DNA of 64,000 nucleotides from Dictyostelium discoideum (taxonomy: Eukaryota). A program made the position numbers and the translations under genes. The notes beneath the pieces were generated by a model. It was not told the origin of the DNA. It did no database searches and saw only the letters and a program-made list of their open reading frames with translations. The stretch is from the NCBI GenBank assembly GCA_000004695.1, contig CM000155.2, positions 992,001 through 1,056,000 on the forward strand. Direction: 5' to 3'. Shown here in pieces: positions 1 to 12,691 of the stretch; within the stretch, counting starts at the first letter, position 1; each line of letters opens with the position of its first letter.

Positions 1-753
1 TTAATTCAAACTGCATTTGGTGAATCAACCACTCTCAATGAGGGTAGTAAAGGTTTTAATAAGATTCAAGATGAAAAGAATATGTTAAAGAAACAAAAAT
101 TAGCTCAAGAATTAGCATTGAGTGAGGAGGAGTATGTCGATTCCCTAACTTATATTTACAATGTTTTCTTACAACCAATTAAAAAATCAATCGATACTCC
201 AAATCAATTGGTAAGCTATCAAGAAAACTTGGAAATCAGTAGTAATTTTGAAACACTTTTCTCTTGTCATAAAACTTTCCTCATCGCTTTGAAAGAACGT
301 ATCGCCGAATGGGATTCTAAACCACTCATGAGTGATATCTTTATGGAGAAAGCTGGTTTCTTAAAATTGTACAATTATTACGTTCAAAATCATACTCGTT
401 CACTTCAAGTCTTGGAACATTGCATTGAAAAGTATCCTTTGTTTGCAATTCATCTCAAACGTATCGAATCCGATCAAAATACCGAACTTAAAGTATTGTT
501 AGCTCAACCATTACGTAGAGTCTCTAAATACTATTTGGTCCTTCGTGAAATTCTTCAATACACTCGTCCAAAACATGATGATTACGATGCTTTAAATCGT
601 GTAGTAGCTAATCTAAAAGATCAAACCGATAAATTTAATGCAAATTCAACCTCTCAAATGTCTGCTGAAGCTGGTTCAAAATCACCTTCCCAAAAATATA
701 AAACTATTAAATTAACTAAAAATTCTAAACAACCTTCACAATTCTTTGTTTAA
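1..753 (+). CDS. RhoGEF (Dbl-homology domain) protein, C-terminal part; the CDS enters from upstream of the window
   Basis: The frame is open from nt 1 with no stop before the first ATG at 82. It carries the DH-domain C-terminal signature '...LAQPLRRVSKYYLVLREILQYT...'. Stop TAA at 751-753. Confidence 0.6.
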   Translation, partial: LIQTAFGESTTLNEGSKGFNKIQDEKNMLKKQKLAQELALSEEEYVDSLTYIYNVFLQPIKKSIDTPNQLVSYQENLEISSNFETLFSCHKTFLIALKERIAEWDSKPLMSDIFMEKAGFLKLYNYYVQNHTRSLQVLEHCIEKYPLFAIHLKRIESDQNTELKVLLAQPLRRVSKYYLVLREILQYTRPKHDDYDALNRVVANLKDQTDKFNANSTSQMSAEAGSKSPSQKYKTIKLTKNSKQPSQFFV

Positions 754-954: not shown

Positions 955-3071
<2,117 letters not shown>

Positions 3072-4493: not shown

Positions 4494-5523
4494 TTAAAAG
4501 GTTTTACCTAAATCGATTTTCTTTTGAAGGTTCTTTGTCGAATAATAAATGAATGAATCAAAGATACCGAAAACAGTGAATACACCACCAATAATTGCAC
4601 AAACATTTGTTAAGAAAGAAGCAAATGATTTACCTCTTTCAGAGACTTTCATCATGATTGGTGAAAGATCATACATAAAAAATAAACCTGGTAAACCTGA
4701 TGGTTCTTCACCTTTTTTAGCTAATAGACGATAATGTTCAGTTACTGAATATTGATTGGTTGCGATTCTATTACCATTTAAACCTTCATAAATTGTTGGT
4801 ACAACTTTAACAAAATATTGGAACATACCAACTCCAACCACTAGAAAAAAAAAAAAAAAAAAAAAAAATCAAATTAATAATTGAATAATTAATTTAATTA
4901 ATTTAATTAATTTAATTAAATTTACTTACTTTCAGTTTTTGTAACATCATCTAATGGATTTTTAATACCAGGGAAATCATTACCAAATGAAAGTCTATTA
5001 ATTGTATGACTAACATTGAAAGAACCATCTTTAAATGGTTGAAGGTCGTGAACGTGCATATGATGTTGTTGGAATGATTTACCAGGTGCAAAATGGAAAT
5101 TACCAGCTACTTTATTGACGAGAATGAAACCATATACTTGACAACCTTCACCATTTTGTTCAACTAAATTCTTTGTGAAACCTTCTCTAATACATTGTGG
5201 AATACCACTTGGATCTAAACCCCAACCCTTTTTACTATATGCTACTCTTACCTCCTCACAAGTATTACAGCACCCTATACCTTTTGAAGGATCCTCAGCA
5301 CCATAACAACTACCACATCCAACAACATCATTATTATCCTTTACTGATTCTTTCTTATTAATCTCCTCCTCTCTAATTGGTGGTGCTTCAATAATTGGTT
5401 GTCCTGTTGGTGATAATCTTTTCTTAAATATATTATGTGCTACATCAAATTGATGTTCACCTGAAACATCCATTGCATCTAAACTTAAATCTATAAAATT
5501 ATAAAATTATAAAATTAATTAAT

Positions 5524-5558
<35 letters not shown>

Positions 5559-5917
5559 CCTATCTTTCTATCATAATTTGCTTACATGCACATGGTAAAT
5601 GGTGAAAAGTAATATCCATATTAATTTTTAATTTTTCACCACGAGTTGTATCTACAAATAATTCATGATGAATATCAGTTGAGAAATATAATGTAACTTG
5701 AGAAAAGAATAACCATAATATAAATACTCCCCCAATGATTGATACTATTTGATAATGAAATAAAATATTAGTATTGATTCTATAAAATTATTGAAATCTC
5801 TGTTTTTTTTTTTTTTTTTTTTTTTTTCTTACCAATTGCGCCTGTATATGTTTTTACTCTAAAATCATCGACTGTCTTTGGGTAAGCATCAAACTTTTTT
5901 AGTTGTGATATTAACAT
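4494..5917 (-). CDS. ERGIC3 / Erv46 family ER-Golgi intermediate compartment protein, 4 exons: join(5917..5833, 5744..5586, 5490..4930, 4840..4494)
   Basis: Colinear match to human ERGIC3 along the whole length: 'KKFDAYPKTVDDFRVKT', 'HELFVDTTRGEKLKINMDITFHHLPCA', 'YLSLDAMDVSGEHQFDVAHNIFKKRL', 'CGSCYGAE...CCNTCEEVR', 'GCQVYGFILVNKVAGNFHFAPGKSFQQHHMHVHDL', 'MFQYFVKVVPTIY', 'KKIDLGKT'. Donors are GTAAG, GTAAGC and GTAAGT; acceptors are (T)nAG; one start codon is split A|TG across a junction. The total is 1152 nt = 383 aa, the same length as human ERGIC3. Confidence 0.85.
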
Positions 5918-6508
5918 CTTTATTTATTATTTATATGGAATATATATATAAACTTGTGTTATTATTATTATTATTATTATTATTTTTATATGATATTATA
6001 TTATATTATTACAAGTTGAAAAAAAAAAGAGAAAAAAAAAAAAAAGAAACAGAGTTTATAACATCTATATATATATTGTTCAATAATTTCAAAAAAAAAA
6101 AAAAAAATAAAAAAAAATAAAAAAAAAAAAAAAACAAAAAATTTTTTTTTTTTTTTTTTTCATCACCCTTTTTTTTATTTTCAATTTTTTTCCTTTTTCT
6201 TGTTTTATTTTTATATTTCCCTATCTATTGTTTATTAATAAATAAATAAATAAATTCCTTTACCATAATTTTAAAATAAAATTAATGAATATAAAAAATA
6301 AAAAATAAATAAAATAAAATAAAATAAAATTAATAAATACTTTTTTTATAAAATTTTTATTTTTATTTTTATTTTTATTTTTTTGATTTAAAATAATTAT
6401 ATTTTAAATACATACATCATTTGTCTAAAAAAAGACAAACATTACCACAAATATTTTTTTTTATTTTAATTTTTTTTTTTATTTGAATATTTGGAATCTT
6501 TGCTTTTT

Positions 6509-6545
<37 letters not shown>

Positions 6546-7480
6546 AAAAATAAAAGTTATCAAATTCGCGCCCAAATTTAAAAAATATGAAATCACATTT
6601 TTAAATTTTTTAGTCCACTTTTTTTTTTTTTTTATATTTTTAATTTTTTTTTTTTTATTATTTTAATTTAACAATAAAATTTAGATTTATTTATAAACAC
6701 ACCTTTTTTTTTTTTTTTTTTTGGATTTCTTTGGTTTTTTTTTTTTTTTTTTTTCCATTTTAGGATAATGAAAAGAAGAATAAAAATATAAAATAAATAC
6801 CATAATTATTCATTTTTTTTTAATATATAATTTATCTAAATTAATTTAAATTCCCCTCGTTTTTTTTTTTTTATATATATTTTTTTTATTTTTATATATA
6901 TTTTTTTATTTTTATTTTTATTTTTTGTTTTTATTATTCAACCGCCTAATTATTTATTATTTTTTTTTAAAATTATTTGTTAATAATAATAAAAACTTGC
7001 ACACAAAAAAAATAAAAAAACACTGCACACTGTCTCATTATCATCCATCTATTATATATATAAATATATATTACACTAAAATAAAAAAAATAAAAAAAAA
7101 AATGTATGTATAAATTTTGTTTTTTTTTATATTTTAAAATTTCCCCACACCTAATAAATAAAAGATACTAATCTATGGATTTTTTTCTACACTCTCTCTT
7201 TATTTTTTTATTTTTTTATTTTTTTTTGTAAATTTTATGATTCAATTATTTTATTAACATTTTATTTTTATTATTATTTTATTTTATTTTATTTTATTTT
7301 TTTTTTAAAATCCAACTACAATTATATTTATTAATTATTAATTAATAAAACCACAAATAAAAAAAATAAAAATAAAATAAACATACACACACACACACAC
7401 TCTCACCTCACATTAATAACATTTTCCTTATATATATATATTTTTTTTTTCAATCATATTATATATATGTATATAAAGAA

Positions 7481-8151
7481 ATGATTGAAATTAAAAATAA
7501 AAATATGAAGAGTAGTATAGGTGATGATGATGATGATTATGGTGGAGGAGGTAATAATAATAATAATAATAATAATAACAATATATCATCATCAATAGTA
7601 GTATCATCATATCCTCATTCACCACCAAATACACCAAACAATAATAACAATAATAATAATACAAATGGTAATAAAAAACAACACCATATTCAAGGTGAAT
7701 TTGATTATTATGACGAAGAAGAGGAGGAAGAGGAAGAAAGTGATATTGGAATTCAAAATCGATTATTCTTAAATCCAAATTATAAACAACATCATCGTAG
7801 TAGATCAATAACAATATCAGGATCACCAACACCAAAGAATTATACTCAAAATCAAAGATACTCTGATGATACAGTTTTATTGAAATCATCAAATGGTTGT
7901 GGTGGTAATAATAATAATAGTAGTAGTAATACTGCAACCACACTATCAGTTGGCTCATATGAATCACCATGTCGATTATTATCAAGTAGTGGCGGTAGTA
8001 ATAGTAATGGAGTTATATTCTCACCAATCTCTGTTACACCAACTGCATCACCATTAAATACACCAGTTAGTTCACATACTCTTCAATCAGTTACCTTAAC
8101 ATTATCACCATTTTCAATTCAAAAAAGATCTGCAACTATACAATTACCTTC

Positions 8152-8195
<44 letters not shown>

Positions 8196-8563
8196 CTACT
8201 ACAACAGATCAAAATTTATTAACTCCACCTGCAACACCACAAACACCTCAACAAAAAGTATTCTCACCACCAAGAAGAAGAAATACTTGTGCAAATTTAA
8301 CAAATAAATTATATTCAGTTTATTCACCACATAAATCACCACCAGATAATAATAATAATAGTAATAATAGTAATGAAGTAATAGTTAATTCACCAATTTC
8401 AATATCACTATCGTCACAAAAATATTTATCAAATCATCATCATCAACAACATCAACATCACCAATCTGTATCATTATCCGATTATTTATGTAATAAAACA
8501 AGTACTGATAATGAAAATGATGATGTATCAACAACAACTACTACAACAAATACAAATAAATCA

Positions 8564-8615
<52 letters not shown>

Positions 8616-9361
8616 GTATGAATTTATTAAATAAAATTAAAAGTAAATTAAAAGAAGATAAAATTAAACATTATGAAACGATATTTTCAGCATATAATGA
8701 ATCTTATGAAACATTGAAAGAGGGTGGTATTTCAGTATTGAATGGTGAAGTGTTGGTATGTATTTTTCAATATTTAGATATAAAGGAAATTTGTTGTTTA
8801 GCACAAACTTGTAGTTGGTGGAGAATAGTTTCAGAACAAAATGTATTATGGTTAAAGAAATTCAATGAACGATTTCAAAGACCTAAGACCATCATAGATA
8901 GATTTTCACCAAACGAATCATGGAAAGAGCTCTATATTCAACATTATTTCTTGGACACATCATATATGGAGTTTGAAAGATTATTATCACTGTTTCCAGT
9001 CACTGTAGAGTATGAACTTGACATTACAATATTGTTAAGTAAAGTATTGAATTACTTAAAACATACAGAATGTAGATCAGAATACATCGATAAATTGGAA
9101 CATCTTAAAAATATTCATCTTACATTTTCAAATAAAATCGAAGCTGCCAATTGTTATATTAAACATAGTGAATTAATATCTTGGGATTCAAATCAATATT
9201 TTCAACAAGAATTTGGTTATCCTCGTGAATCTCATTCAGATAGAAAAGAACGTATTCTAAAAGCTGCAATTCATTTATTATTTGAAAGTAAATATTGGGA
9301 ACGTTGTTTAATTTTAATTAATCAATTAAGAAAGAAATATAAAAAAGAATTAAAAAAACAA

Positions 9362-9459
<98 letters not shown>

Positions 9460-10054
9460 AATTAATAATAATAATAATATTAATAATAATAATAATGAAA
9501 ATAATGAAAATAATGAAAATAATAATAATAATAATTGTAATATACCAATAAAGAATTTATTAGTACTAAAAATGATTGAAATTTCGAAATTAGAACATCA
9601 ATGTTATCAATCAATTGAAAGTAAAGAAAGATTTTTCGAAGAATATTTCTTTGTAGAATTTCGTGGTAAAGGATCTTTTCCAAAGAGTGTAGATGGTAAA
9701 GATTTTATATTTCGTGGTAAAGAATTGGAGAAATTAGGTTCATTCGTATCAAGATTAAAAAATAGATATCCAGGTGCTCAAGTGATTCCAAAACAACAAG
9801 GTGTTGATTTATCACAAACAAATGGTCAATTCATTCATATTAGACCATGTAAACCTGTTTTATTACCAAAAGATATTATTAGTAGTGGTAGTGGTAGAGG
9901 TGGTAATATTTGTAACAATAGTAGTAAAATTATAAGTGGTATTAGTGGTTATTCAAATAAAACACATTATAAATCATTAAAATCATTTATAAATAATAAT
10001 TCAAAAGTATTTTATTTCTCTGCACCATTTAAAAAGAATTTAAATAATAATAAT

Positions 10055-10110
<56 letters not shown>

Positions 10111-10587
10111 ATTTTTAATGTTATGGACAAGAGATACATATATAATTTCAAAATCAATATTTCCATCATTAATTAGAAATTCAATGATTAGTGAAATTGT
10201 AGAGATTGAAAAGAATCCATTAGAGAATGCGATTGAATCATTAAAGAGAAAGAATAAAGAATTGGATAAAATATTTAATCAATGTAAAAAGAGTATGCAA
10301 TGGAATAGTCATTTAACAATGTCATTGAATGGTGTAGTGGATGCAGTGGTTTCTGGTGGTATCAATATGTATAGAATGTTCTTTCAACAATCTTATTTAG
10401 ATTCAAATCCAATCACTCATTTGGATTTACTAATTAAATTGAAACAATTATTATTGGATCAAAAATCATTGTTAGAGTTTGGACTTGATATTCATTCTCA
10501 TTTATGTCCTGATAATATGAAAGCACTTCAACAAAATATGGAATTATGTTTTGAAAAATGGAAACAAATTGTAAATGAATTAATAAT

Positions 10588-10621
<34 letters not shown>

Positions 10622-12004
10622 GTCAATAATCAAGATAAAGATAAAGATAAAAGAGAATCAACTGAAATTTATGATAATCATGTTAAACAATTATCAAGAT
10701 CTCATTCTGATTTAGAATCAATATTAAAACAATTAGATGAAAATACATCTGGCAGTACTTGTACTACACCAACTAAACAACAACAACAGCAAACTTCATC
10801 AACACCTTCATCACCATTATCAACTATTAATCAAATTCAAAATCAATTAAATCAAAATCAAATTGAACAATTATTGAAATTACAAACTGAAAAATCAAAA
10901 GAACGTGAAAGAGAAAAAGAAAGAAAGAAAGAAATGGAAAGTTTGGCTTTATTAGCTTCTCTAGAATTGGATTCAACAATTAATGAAAATATATTTGAAA
11001 TGGTAAATACTAATAATAATAGTAATAATCATAGAAATAGTGGTAAATTAACTTCAAATAAACCACCAATTCAAATTAAATCAATTACTACACCAATAAA
11101 ACAATCAAATCAACAACCAAATCAACAATCAAATCAACAATCAAATCAACAACCATTACCAATTCAACCACAAAGACCATCTTCATCATTATCTAATAGT
11201 AGTTCAAATATAACTTCAAATACATTATCAATACCAAGACCATCTTCATCTCTATCAAATTCATCACCTTGTTTATCAAATTCACCACCAAAATTAACAC
11301 CAACTAAATCAACTTTAAATATCAACCCTTCACCACAAAAGAAACCAACTTCTCCAAAAACTCAAAATAAAATCACTACAAAACTATCATCATCATCATC
11401 AACAACATCGGCATCAACTTCAACTTCTAATACACCAAAGACAACTACTACAAATTCAACCATTACAAATACAACATCATCACAAACAAACTCAACTTTA
11501 ACATCCACAACAACCAAACAAACTCCAACCAAATCTTCAAATAATTATTTGAAACCACCATCAGTAGCAAGACCTTCAACAATCTCAAGATCACTTACTT
11601 CTATTTCAACACCACCATCAACATCTAAATCATCCTCATCGTCAACAACAAATAAATTGAATATAACAACACCAACAAAAACTAGACCAACTATTGGCTC
11701 AAATACAACATTTATAACCCCTAAAAAAGAATCATTACCAATTCCAATAACACCTTCTTCTACAAAGAAATCATCATCATATTCATTATCATCAACATCA
11801 GTACCATCAACTACAACTACAACTACAACTTCTTCTCATTCATCATTCACTAGACCAACTCAAAGTACTTTAGCGAGAAAATTAGAAGTTGAATCAAAGA
11901 AATCAACAACATTAAGAATAAAATCAAAAGATAGACCAGCCATTATTGAACCAAAAACCCCACAAGCTAAAAAACAATTCATTGTACCAACAACACCAAC
12001 AAAT

Positions 12005-12035
<31 letters not shown>

Positions 12036-12355
12036 AATCAACTGGTATCACATCAAGTAGTTTTAAAAAGAGTCTTTATGAAATTGGTGATCCATCATTA
12101 ATATCTCCAACAATGTCGACAACATCATCATCATCATCATCAACATCATCAACAACATCATCAACTACATCATCTTCAGTATACTCAAGTTCTATGTCGT
12201 CTTCATACTCTTCAAGAAGTAGTGGTGGAATTAAAACTTCTTCACTATCATCATCCAGTAGCCATATGTTTGGTGGTAGTGGAATTCAAATTAAACATGG
12301 TAACAATAATAGTAAACTTTCTCCCTCTTCATTTAATCCAAATATGATTCAAATG

Positions 12356-12389
<34 letters not shown>

Positions 12390-12684
12390 ATTCATCATCA
12401 TCATCATCAACTGCTTCTACAACAACTACACCATCACCACCACTTTCGACAATAAATTTAAATACAAATACAATTCCATCACTTGATATTAGTAAGCCAA
12501 TCGAAAAACCACCACAACCAATTGCCTCTAAAAAACGTCTTAGTATTACTGATTCAATTAAAAGTGTTGTTAACCTTTTAAATGTTGATGATTCAAAGAA
12601 AATTAAAACTTCAACTTTAAAATCATCATCAATCTCTATAAATAGTTCAGTTTCATCTACTTTAAAACCTTTACCAAAAAAGAG

Positions 12685-12691
<7 letters not shown>
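7481..12691 (+). CDS. Large low-complexity protein with an F-box-like motif and a DOCK-family DHR-2 (CZH2) GEF domain, followed by a long Ser/Thr-rich tail
   Basis: A single 1736-aa ORF. F-box-like segment 'LNGEVLVCIFQYLDIKEICCLAQTCSWWRIVSEQNVLWLKKF'. DHR-2 lobes: 'KAAIHLLFESKYWERCLILINQLRKKY', 'FVEFRGKGSFPKSVDGKDFIFRGKELEKLGSFVSRLKNRYPG..QFIHI', 'YFSAPFKK..', 'NPLENAIESLKRKNKEL', 'NGVVDAVVSGGINMYRMFF', 'LCPDNMKALQQNMELCFEKW'. It has poly-N, poly-T (Thr) and poly-S tracts. No DHR-1 domain is visible. Confidence 0.7.

Follow-up and report, generated by a model that had tools for sequence, protein, structure and literature searches.

The analysed window comprises 64,000 nucleotides of the Dictyostelium discoideum genome (contig CM000155.2, positions 992,001 to 1,056,000 of the forward strand), and all nucleotide coordinates given here refer to this window. 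A single uninterrupted open reading frame (ORF) of 1736 amino acids plus stop codon, found exactly as a preceding sequence-only reading had described it, occupies positions 7481..12691 of the plus strand and, judged by its sequence, is D. discoideum docC, a gene of the DOCK family. The locus contains the following features:

4494-5473, minus strand: ERV41/46 homologue, the next gene upstream of docC
7481..12691, plus strand: docC, single ORF (ORF listing)
7481..8719, plus strand: N-terminal low-complexity region, presumably disordered (aa 1-413; 54% S/T/N/Q/P, no Pfam match)
7790..7840, plus strand: conserved island HHRSRSITISGSPTPKN (aa 104-120; five-ortholog conservation scan and alignment)
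8252..8305, plus strand: conserved island QKVFSPPRRRNTCANLTN (aa 258-275; same scan and alignment)
8729..8863, plus strand: F-box ISVLNGEVLVCIFQYLDIKEICCLAQTCSWWRIVSEQNVLWLKKF (aa 417-461; Pfam, likeness to FBXW7)
8864..9040, plus strand: conserved helical linker between F-box and lobe A (aa 462-520; FBXW7 alignment, ortholog identity)
9041..9364, plus strand: DHR-2 lobe A, TPR-like helical (aa 521-628; DOCK2 DHR-2 chain residues 15-121)
9365..9559, plus strand: poly-Asn loop insert between lobes A and B (aa 629-693; pLDDT <50)
9560..10213, plus strand: DHR-2 lobe B, beta-sheet (aa 694-911; DOCK2 chain residues 136-224 and from 264)
10214..10591, plus strand: DHR-2 lobe C, helical bundle with the alpha10 nucleotide sensor (aa 912-1037; Pfam, DOCK2 alignment)
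10349..10351, plus strand: codon of V957, counterpart of the catalytic valine, in LNGVVDAVV(957)SGG
10592..12688, plus strand: C-terminal Ser/Thr-rich low-complexity tail (aa 1038-1736; 26% Ser, 16% Thr, no Pfam match)

The ORF was named docC on the basis of its F-box string, which is that of the 'docC' entry in Fig. S3 of Boland et al. (2022); the entry reads QY, as does the window, where D. firmibasis has QH. The naming is supported by the identity of 87-89% between DocC and its D. firmibasis ortholog, and both termini match the annotated D. firmibasis protein P0001 (MIEI...; ...KPL.KK.I). The region between docC and the upstream gene (5474-7480) is AT-rich and contains no ORF of more than 80 amino acids. 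Upstream exons supplying a DHR-1 domain, evidence for which would have counted against the sequence-only reading, were ruled out on this ground and by the opposite orientation of the upstream gene; the gene model of D. firmibasis also begins at the same start codon. The novelty that this reading had implied was not supported, as docC is a named gene whose F-box is annotated in UniProt and which Boland et al. (2022) listed among F-box candidates, so that the combination of F-box and DHR-2 is already known. As this architecture is present in databases, the contribution made here is one of context and not of discovery; what is added is the conservation of the cassette, the FBXW7-type linker, and the completeness of DHR-2. 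No assay of GEF activity was found for DocC in the searchable literature, and no report of its GTPase partner, localisation, or phenotype.

The F-box proposed from the sequence was recovered by the Pfam profile F-box-like (PF12937) with 35.1 bits against a cut-off of 24.3 (E 1.2e-8, aa 423-461), whereas PF00646 (F-box) scored 20.5 bits, equal to its cut-off of 20.5. Comparison of aa 416-497 to PDB sequences retrieved FBXW7 (E 4.9e-9), with 40% identity in the F-box and a match that runs on into the FBXW7 linker helix; FBXW8, FBXW11, beta-TrCP, and the F-box region of ECT2L (E 0.003) were further matches. All hydrophobic core positions and the C-x-x-W-R motif are kept. A model based on orthologs only (8-sequence alignment) contained three predicted F-box helices at a pLDDT of about 83, and a 41-sequence model had low pLDDT for F-box and linker (37-70; F-box helices 53-70). 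Foldseek matched the F-box to Fbw7 and FBXW8 with a probability of 0.99-1.0, the E-value for Fbw7 being weak (0.05). The sequence-only reading was right in placing the F-box ahead of DHR-2, but the gap, given as about 40 residues, amounts to about 45-60, and what fills it is a helical linker under strong conservation rather than a spacer. The linker segment ESWKELYIQHYFLDTSY aligns with the FBXW7 linker helix SPWKSAYIRQHRIDTNW. The order in DocC of F-box (aa 417-461), conserved linker, and GTPase-binding DHR-2 corresponds to the canonical substrate-receptor layout of F-box, linker, and protein-binding domain. DocC thereby resembles FBXW7/Cdc4, which consists of F-box, alpha-helical linker, and WD40 domain, in its F-box and matched linker helix, but has DHR-2 in place of the substrate-binding WD40 propeller, and its binding to Skp1 is a prediction.

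Where helix 1 begins, F-boxes canonically have a Leu-Pro that contacts Skp1; D. discoideum, D. firmibasis, and Tieghemostelium have LN instead. Leu-Pro is kept in Heterostelium, Acytostelium, Synstelium, and the metagenomic protein P0046, and Mastigella has VP. In the data of Boland et al. (2022), the only evidence classes given for DocC are 'a' and 'b', which stand for prediction from databases and by BLAST, and DocC is absent from all four Skp1 co-IP sets; this absence carries little weight, since the sets contained no more than 7 of the 54 predicted F-box proteins. The exchange of LP for LN in the D. discoideum clade, the absence of DocC from the Skp1 interactomes, and the position of the F-box directly beside lobe A, through which DOCK proteins dimerise (PMC10152721), would all agree with F-box-like helices that act outside SCF by capping lobe A, by interacting there, or by binding Skp1 without cullin. 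Such a role appears unlikely given the proline in three dictyostelids, Mastigella, and P0046, the retained hydrophobic core and C-x-x-W-R motif together with the identity to FBXW7, and the recovery in Skp1 co-IPs of other F-box proteins without the proline, for example JcdI and DDB_G0276383 (Boland et al. 2022). The coupling to SCF ligases that the sequence-only reading had considered appears plausible.

The DHR-2 region of DocC (aa ~521-1037) is complete and consists of three lobes, in agreement with the earlier description. Only lobe C exceeded the Pfam cut-off (DHR-2_Lobe_C; 39.7 bits versus 26), and with F-box-like it places both proposed domains above threshold; lobe A scored 11.5 bits, below threshold, and lobe B was unreported. 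Parts of DHR-2 are missed by Pfam because of divergence and poly-Asn loop inserts. A phmmer search against the PDB aligned three collinear stretches of DocC to the DOCK2 DHR-2 (3b13; residues 15-121, 136-224, and 264-422) with an E-value of 1.1e-31. In the AF2 model pLDDT exceeded 90 across lobes A, B, and C, and Foldseek superimposed the AlphaFold model on the whole DOCK2 DHR-2 with an E-value of 2.5e-27 and a TM-score of 0.75 (target-normalised). For lobe A alone the match to DOCK2 lobe A had an rmsd of 3.7 A over 116 columns. In lobe B, which holds two more low-complexity loop inserts (about aa 801-832 and 857-873), the strands are predicted, and the EFxxLW and FxSxPFxK motifs are (nearly) invariant in alignments of 7 and 41 sequences. 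The insert between lobes A and B is species-specific, being missing in Tieghemostelium, Heterostelium, Acytostelium, Synstelium, and Mastigella. DHR-2 of DocC is nearer to DOCK1-5 (DOCK-A/B) than to DOCK6-11: phmmer ranked DOCK2 (E 1.1e-31) and DOCK5 (2.4e-27) ahead of DOCK10 (2e-5), with DOCK9, DOCK7, and DOCK8 at 0.009 or weaker, and Foldseek ranked the DOCK proteins alike.

DOCK catalysis depends on the valine nucleotide sensor, and no lobe other than B and C is required for GEF activity (PMC10152721). V957 in LNGVVDAVVSGG aligned with the sensor valine of DOCK2 LNGIVDPAVMGG and is the counterpart of Val1951 in DOCK9. Together with G951, A955, G959, and G960 it is invariant across 41 DOCK sequences, and it is also invariant in the 7-sequence alignment. 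As the sensor valine and the alpha10 motif are intact and, among solved structures, the Rac-specific DOCK2 and DOCK5 come closest, the DHR-2 of DocC is most likely catalytically competent on Rac-type GTPases. A DHR-2 that has lost catalysis and acts as a scaffold only could be suspected from lobes A and B falling below the Pfam threshold, from the large low-complexity inserts in lobe B, and from the DOCK180 'ISP' motif, which reads KNP in DocC. We consider this reading very unlikely, since neither the catalytic valine nor the alpha10 GG motif varies, the inserts lie in low-confidence loops of an otherwise confidently predicted DOCK2-like fold, and the orthologs without inserts keep the same DHR-2 core.

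DOCK GEFs are textbook two-domain enzymes in which DHR-1 serves membrane targeting and DHR-2 catalysis. On DocC no Pfam match to DHR-1/DOCK-C2, C2, or SH3 was obtained even at E<=10, and none was found in six homologues of the same layout, so that the absence of DHR-1 noted in the sequence-only reading was borne out. The Pfam domain for the ELMO-binding N-terminus of DOCK proteins likewise had no match on DocC, and an ARM region is absent. Little room for DHR-1 exists before the F-box in Heterostelium (119 aa) and Mastigella (7 aa). Among the paralogues, DockA, DockB, and DockD were set apart as combining DHR1 with DHR2 (Pakes 2013), from which, with the present Pfam scans, we infer that DockC is without DHR-1. 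DocC thus shares the three-lobe DHR-2 and the sensor valine with the DOCK-A/B Rac GEFs (human DOCK1/2/5; DockA, DockB, and DockD) but differs from them in lacking DHR-1/C2, the N-terminal SH3/ELMO-binding region, and the ARM/TPR solenoid, in carrying F-box and linker directly before lobe A, and in its low-complexity flanks of 413 and 699 aa.

The cassette of F-box, linker, and DHR-2 is kept in the five other dictyostelids compared (D. firmibasis, Tieghemostelium, Heterostelium, Acytostelium, and Synstelium). It is collinear in the archamoeba Mastigella eilhardi (P0006; F-box at aa 8-47) and in P0046, which has 4373 aa. The F-box was above the Pfam cut-off in six homologues and its motif is kept in seven; its retention in other amoebozoa, a check suggested with the sequence-only reading, extends over five dictyostelids and Mastigella. 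Among dictyostelids the identity is 47-69% for the F-box and 49-71% for the DHR-2 lobes, and the linker is 69-76% identical in three orthologs. F-box and linker are accordingly as conserved as the catalytic lobes. DocC shows that a DHR-2 that seems active can persist in a lineage for hundreds of millions of years in combination with an F-box instead of DHR-1.

These features suggest that DocC is an atypical DOCK-A/B-like GEF cut down to F-box, helical linker, and DHR-2 (aa 414-1037) between disordered arms, in which an FBXW7-type F-box with helical linker would have replaced the N-terminal SH3, C2/DHR-1, and ARM modules; PIP3-driven membrane targeting and regulation by ELMO would therefore presumably be lost. 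The F-box would most likely dock Skp1, and thereby Cul1/Rbx1, beside lobe A. We consider it moderately probable that DocC acts as a Rac GEF with a link to Skp1/SCF, with its own turnover or the ubiquitination of Rac as the outcome. In the former case F-box-dependent auto-ubiquitination would set the abundance of DocC, and in the latter DHR-2 would be the substrate-binding domain through which the ligase receives Rac, in the manner of FBX8 and ARF6.

Taken to its limit, the turnover option would make DHR-2 an ordinary Rac GEF whose abundance is regulated by the F-box via SCF/Skp1, Rac being no substrate. Some F-box proteins indeed seem to be independent proteins in which the F-box merely regulates their own turnover (Boland et al. 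2022), and the conservation of the catalytic valine and the alpha10 motif indicates selection for GEF activity and not for binding alone. A degron for DocC itself, however, needs neither an FBXW7-like linker of fixed length conserved at 69-76% nor the layout of a substrate receptor, and this restricted reading is somewhat doubtful.

The layout and the FBXW7-like F-box and linker fit instead an SCF(DocC) complex in which DHR-2 captures GDP-bound or nucleotide-free Rac for ubiquitination, a DOCK analogue of FBX8. This protein, with F-box and Sec7 GEF domain, is reported to belong to an SCF ligase whose substrate is ARF6 (PMC6727740). The retention of the cassette over a long evolutionary span would also agree with this. 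DHR-2/GTPase complexes are, however, transient in cells containing GTP, and DocC did not appear in the Skp1 co-IPs, which renders a dedicated substrate receptor improbable. Its most specific form, a DOCK-based ligase with a catalytically competent DHR-2 that is dimerised through lobe A, rigidly tied to Skp1 by the FBXW7-type linker, and captures Rac during exchange for ubiquitination, is quite unlikely. If it were true, one ancient cassette would both activate and mark its GTPase in Dictyostelia, Archamoebae, and at least one other eukaryote.

For the favoured coupling of a Rac GEF to Skp1/SCF, several known proteins offer comparisons. FBX8/FBXO8 likewise has an F-box N-terminal of a small-GTPase GEF domain, but its GEF fold (Sec7) and GTPase family (ARF) are unrelated and it is metazoan-restricted and of independent origin. 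ECT2L, a metazoan protein with F-box and Dbl-homology RhoGEF domain, and the Dictyostelium proteins GefG and GacFF also fuse an F-box to a regulator of Rho/Ras-family GTPases; their catalytic domains, in contrast, are DH, RasGEF, and RhoGAP, and none is a DOCK domain. Fusions of the F-box in Dictyostelium include RasGEF (gefG), RhoGAP (gacFF), RabGAP, and ARF proteins (Boland et al. 2022, Fig. S3). Provided that its F-box binds Skp1, DocC would be the first DOCK protein with a direct connection to an SCF ubiquitin ligase. It would then be for Rho-family GTPases what FBX8 is for ARF6, in an organism that is amenable to genetic work.

The two arms flanking the cassette contain 54-62% S/T/N/Q/P and have no Pfam match, and with an identity of 5-23% to the orthologs from dictyostelids outside Dictyostelium (12-20% for the C-terminal tail) a hidden folded domain was ruled out. 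A Pfam match to 'rRNA_processing' (aa 607-682) was below cut-off and is a Lys/Asn-rich low-complexity artefact; an NCBIfam search of DocC returned no match, as expected for a eukaryotic protein. The C-terminal tail is Ser/Thr-rich as described in the sequence-only reading (42% Ser plus Thr) but has a length of 699 aa instead of the 800 given there, and its conservation is limited to short motifs such as ...LKPLPKK at the extreme end. In the N-terminal arm, the conserved island HHRSRSITISGSPTPKN fits the RxRxxS/T consensus and may be a site for basophilic (AKT/PKB-type) kinases, and QKVFSPPRRRNTCANLTN fits the RRxT consensus of AGC kinases, for which it would be a candidate target.

The window has a G + C content of ~16–32% and is rich in poly-Asn and poly-Thr tracts, both of which are typical of Dictyostelium. 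According to the ORF listing, docC is encoded here by a single, uninterrupted ORF, and no functional tie between it and its neighbors is visible:

955–3071, minus strand: SAGA-Tad1-like protein containing a long poly-Asn/Gln stretch
4494–5473, minus strand: ERV41/46 (COPII-coated ER vesicle transporter) homologue with two exons, next gene upstream of docC
7481–12691, plus strand: docC, 1736 amino acids
12992–13957, plus strand: GNAT acetyltransferase

The start (MIEI...) and end (...KPLPKKRI) of DocC coincide with those of the annotated D. firmibasis ortholog. The conserved portion of the protein forms one block (aa 414–1037), flanked by an N-terminal arm of 413 amino acids and a C-terminal arm of 699 amino acids, which consist of 54 and 62% S/T/N/Q/P, respectively, and are just 5–23% identical to orthologs outside the genus.

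A sequence-only reading had described DocC as an F-box fused to a complete DOCK DHR-2 domain, lacking DHR-1. This observation was borne out, with minor corrections, by Pfam, PDB, and fold evidence, and the accompanying interpretation is plausible. No Pfam match to C2, DOCK-C2, or SH3 was obtained in DocC even at E ≤ 10, and a folded domain hidden in the arms was ruled out by their low complexity and poor conservation. Upstream exons do not supply a DHR-1 either, since the 2 kb preceding the gene (5474–7480) contain no ORF of >80 amino acids, and the gene upstream of them, the ERV41/46 homologue, is on the minus strand. Together with the start and end shared with the D. firmibasis ortholog, these results argue that DHR-1 is genuinely absent.

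By Pfam alone, a complete DHR-2 would be unproven because only Lobe C passes its threshold (39.7 bits; cut-off 26), with Lobe A sub-threshold at 11.5 bits and Lobe B unreported. A phmmer comparison of aa 381–1060 with all PDB sequences retrieved the DHR-2 of DOCK2 (3b13, 2yin; E = 1e-31) in three collinear stretches on DOCK2 chain residues 15–121, 136–224, and 264–422, which represent lobes A, B, and C. It was followed by DOCK5 (E = 2e-27) and by DOCK10, DOCK9, DOCK7, and DOCK8 (E = 2e-5 or weaker). An AlphaFold2 model of aa 411–1040, built on a 41-sequence alignment, had a pLDDT >90 throughout the DHR-2 lobes, the low-confidence segments being the F-box/linker region and low-complexity (poly-Asn) loop inserts. 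Foldseek placed this model on the DOCK2 DHR-2 (E = 2.5e-27; TM 0.75 normalized to the target), followed by DOCK5, DOCK10, DOCK9, DOCK7, and DOCK8. We conclude that the DHR-2 of DocC is complete and of the DOCK-A/B type, with a probable specificity for Rac; its completeness despite sub-threshold Pfam lobes is an addition of this analysis. The Pfam models of lobes A and B remain below threshold because the domain is interrupted by inserts, which are absent from non-Dictyostelium orthologs and were modeled as low-confidence loops:

9365–9559, plus strand: poly-Asn/low-complexity insert between lobes A and B
~9881–9976 and ~10049–10099, plus strand: low-complexity inserts within lobe B

The “nucleotide sensor” in alpha10 is intact, with LNGVVDAVV(957)SGG of DocC aligning with LNGIVDPAVMGG of DOCK2, and the 41-sequence alignment shows no variation at V957, G951, A955, G959, and G960. 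The sensor valine is shared by all DOCKs as the essential catalytic residue, and lobes B and C are enough for DOCK catalysis (PMC10152721). Judged from these residues the DHR-2 of DocC is probably active, and the rival explanation that it is a pseudo-GEF has to be weighed against the intact sensor.

The F-box scored 35.1 bits with the Pfam F-box-like model (cut-off 24.3) and exactly at the cut-off (20.5) with PF00646. Among PDB sequences, aa 416–497 matched FBXW7 (E = 4.9e-9), then FBXW8, FBXW11, beta-TrCP, ECT2L, and FBXL5. The F-box is 40% identical to that of FBXW7 across 45 residues, and the match runs on into the helical linker of FBXW7 (ESWKELYIQHYFLDTSY versus SPWKSAYIRQHRIDTNW). In a second AlphaFold2 model, derived from F-box-bearing homologues only, the three F-box helices reached a pLDDT of ~83 and the linker 59–87; Foldseek found Fbw7 and FBXW8 with a probability of 0.99–1.0, the E-values being weak (0.05–0.3) because the matched piece is short. 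Helix 1 of the DocC F-box opens with Leu-Asn where the canonical motif has Leu-Pro. On sequence grounds the F-box, with its linker, is of the FBXW7 type, which adds to the earlier description.

When 1.84 billion representative proteins were searched exhaustively with phmmer, 1065 matches were obtained, the top six of which share F-box and DHR-2 without DHR-1 according to Pfam:

D. firmibasis, 87% identity
Tieghemostelium lacteum, 63% identity
Heterostelium album, 58% identity
Acytostelium subglobosum, 58% identity
Synstelium polycarpum, 54% identity
Mastigella eilhardi (archamoeba), 33% identity, F-box at aa 8–47

A custom HMM covering the F-box and the linker start detected one further carrier among its best 150 matches. 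This eukaryotic protein of 4373 amino acids (P0046; 27.9-kb contig of a JGI/IMG metagenome) contains WW, F-box-like, DHR-2, and C-terminal CAP-Gly domains, and its alignment with DocC is collinear over the stretch spanning F-box to lobe C (E = 2e-13 and 6e-30). Including a sub-threshold DH RhoGEF match (26.9 bits versus 27.6), it may combine two different RhoGEF types and an F-box in one chain. Among dictyostelids, identity amounts to 47–69% in the F-box, 69–76% in the linker, and 49–71% in the catalytic lobes, and by this measure F-box and linker are constrained as much as the catalytic lobes. Leu-Pro is kept in Heterostelium, Acytostelium, Synstelium, and P0046, and Mastigella has Val-Pro, which makes Leu-Asn the derived state, found in the D. 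discoideum/Tieghemostelium clade. As a further addition of this analysis, the F-box-linker-DHR-2 cassette is, judging from its carriers, older than the split of Dictyostelia and Archamoebae.

The best-supported reading, and a plausible one, is that DocC couples a Rac-GEF module to Skp1/SCF. The succession of F-box, conserved FBXW7-like linker, and protein-binding domain corresponds to a substrate-receptor layout, and the degree of linker conservation far exceeds what a flexible tether would require. The rival explanation assigns the F-box a Skp1-independent structural role. Boland et al. (2022; PMC9485057) list the DocC F-box string as docC in their Fig. S3 under class “ab” (UniProt annotation plus BLASTp prediction), without any of the four classes assigned to proteins recovered in Skp1 co-immunoprecipitations; little weight attaches to this, since no more than 7 of the 54 predicted F-box proteins were recovered. 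If DocC is coupled to Skp1/SCF, its own turnover could be controlled through the F-box, a role proposed by the same authors for F-box proteins without receptor domains. Alternatively, DocC could present Rac to the ligase, in parallel to FBX8 (F-box and Sec7), which was reported to present ARF6 (PMC6727740). The kept catalytic valine indicates that exchange activity would be retained under either output. Because DHR-1 and the ELMO-binding region are gone, DocC must be targeted to membranes and regulated by other means; candidates would be the basic C-terminus and two conserved motifs of the basophilic-kinase type in the N-terminal arm, RSRSITISGSP and PPRRRNT. Two short islands kept across dictyostelids in this otherwise unconserved arm may represent regulatory phosphosites or 14-3-3 sites:

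7790–7840, plus strand: HHRSRSITISGSPTPKN, RxRxxS/T, AKT/PKB-type
8252–8305, plus strand: QKVFSPPRRRNTCANLTN, RRxT, PKA/AGC-type

D. discoideum has eight Dock-like genes, DockA–D and ZizA–D (PMC6548286). DockA, B, and D were described as the three Dock paralogues with both DHR1 and DHR2 (PMC3620097), which implicitly makes DockC the exception. No paper on DocC itself was found in the searchable literature; the architecture of this annotated gene is already catalogued. Boland et al. (2022; Fig. S3) also list other regulators of small GTPases among the F-box candidates, namely gefG (RasGEF), gacFF (RhoGAP), a RabGAP, and an ARF-domain protein, and it seems that F-boxes have repeatedly been fused to GTPase-cycle proteins in the Dictyostelium lineage. 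The window itself starts within a further gene for a Rho-family activator, whose ORF (82–753, plus strand) encodes a RhoGEF domain of the Dbl-homology type (123 bits with the Pfam RhoGEF model), and two unrelated kinds of RhoGEF genes are thus located ≤7 kb apart.
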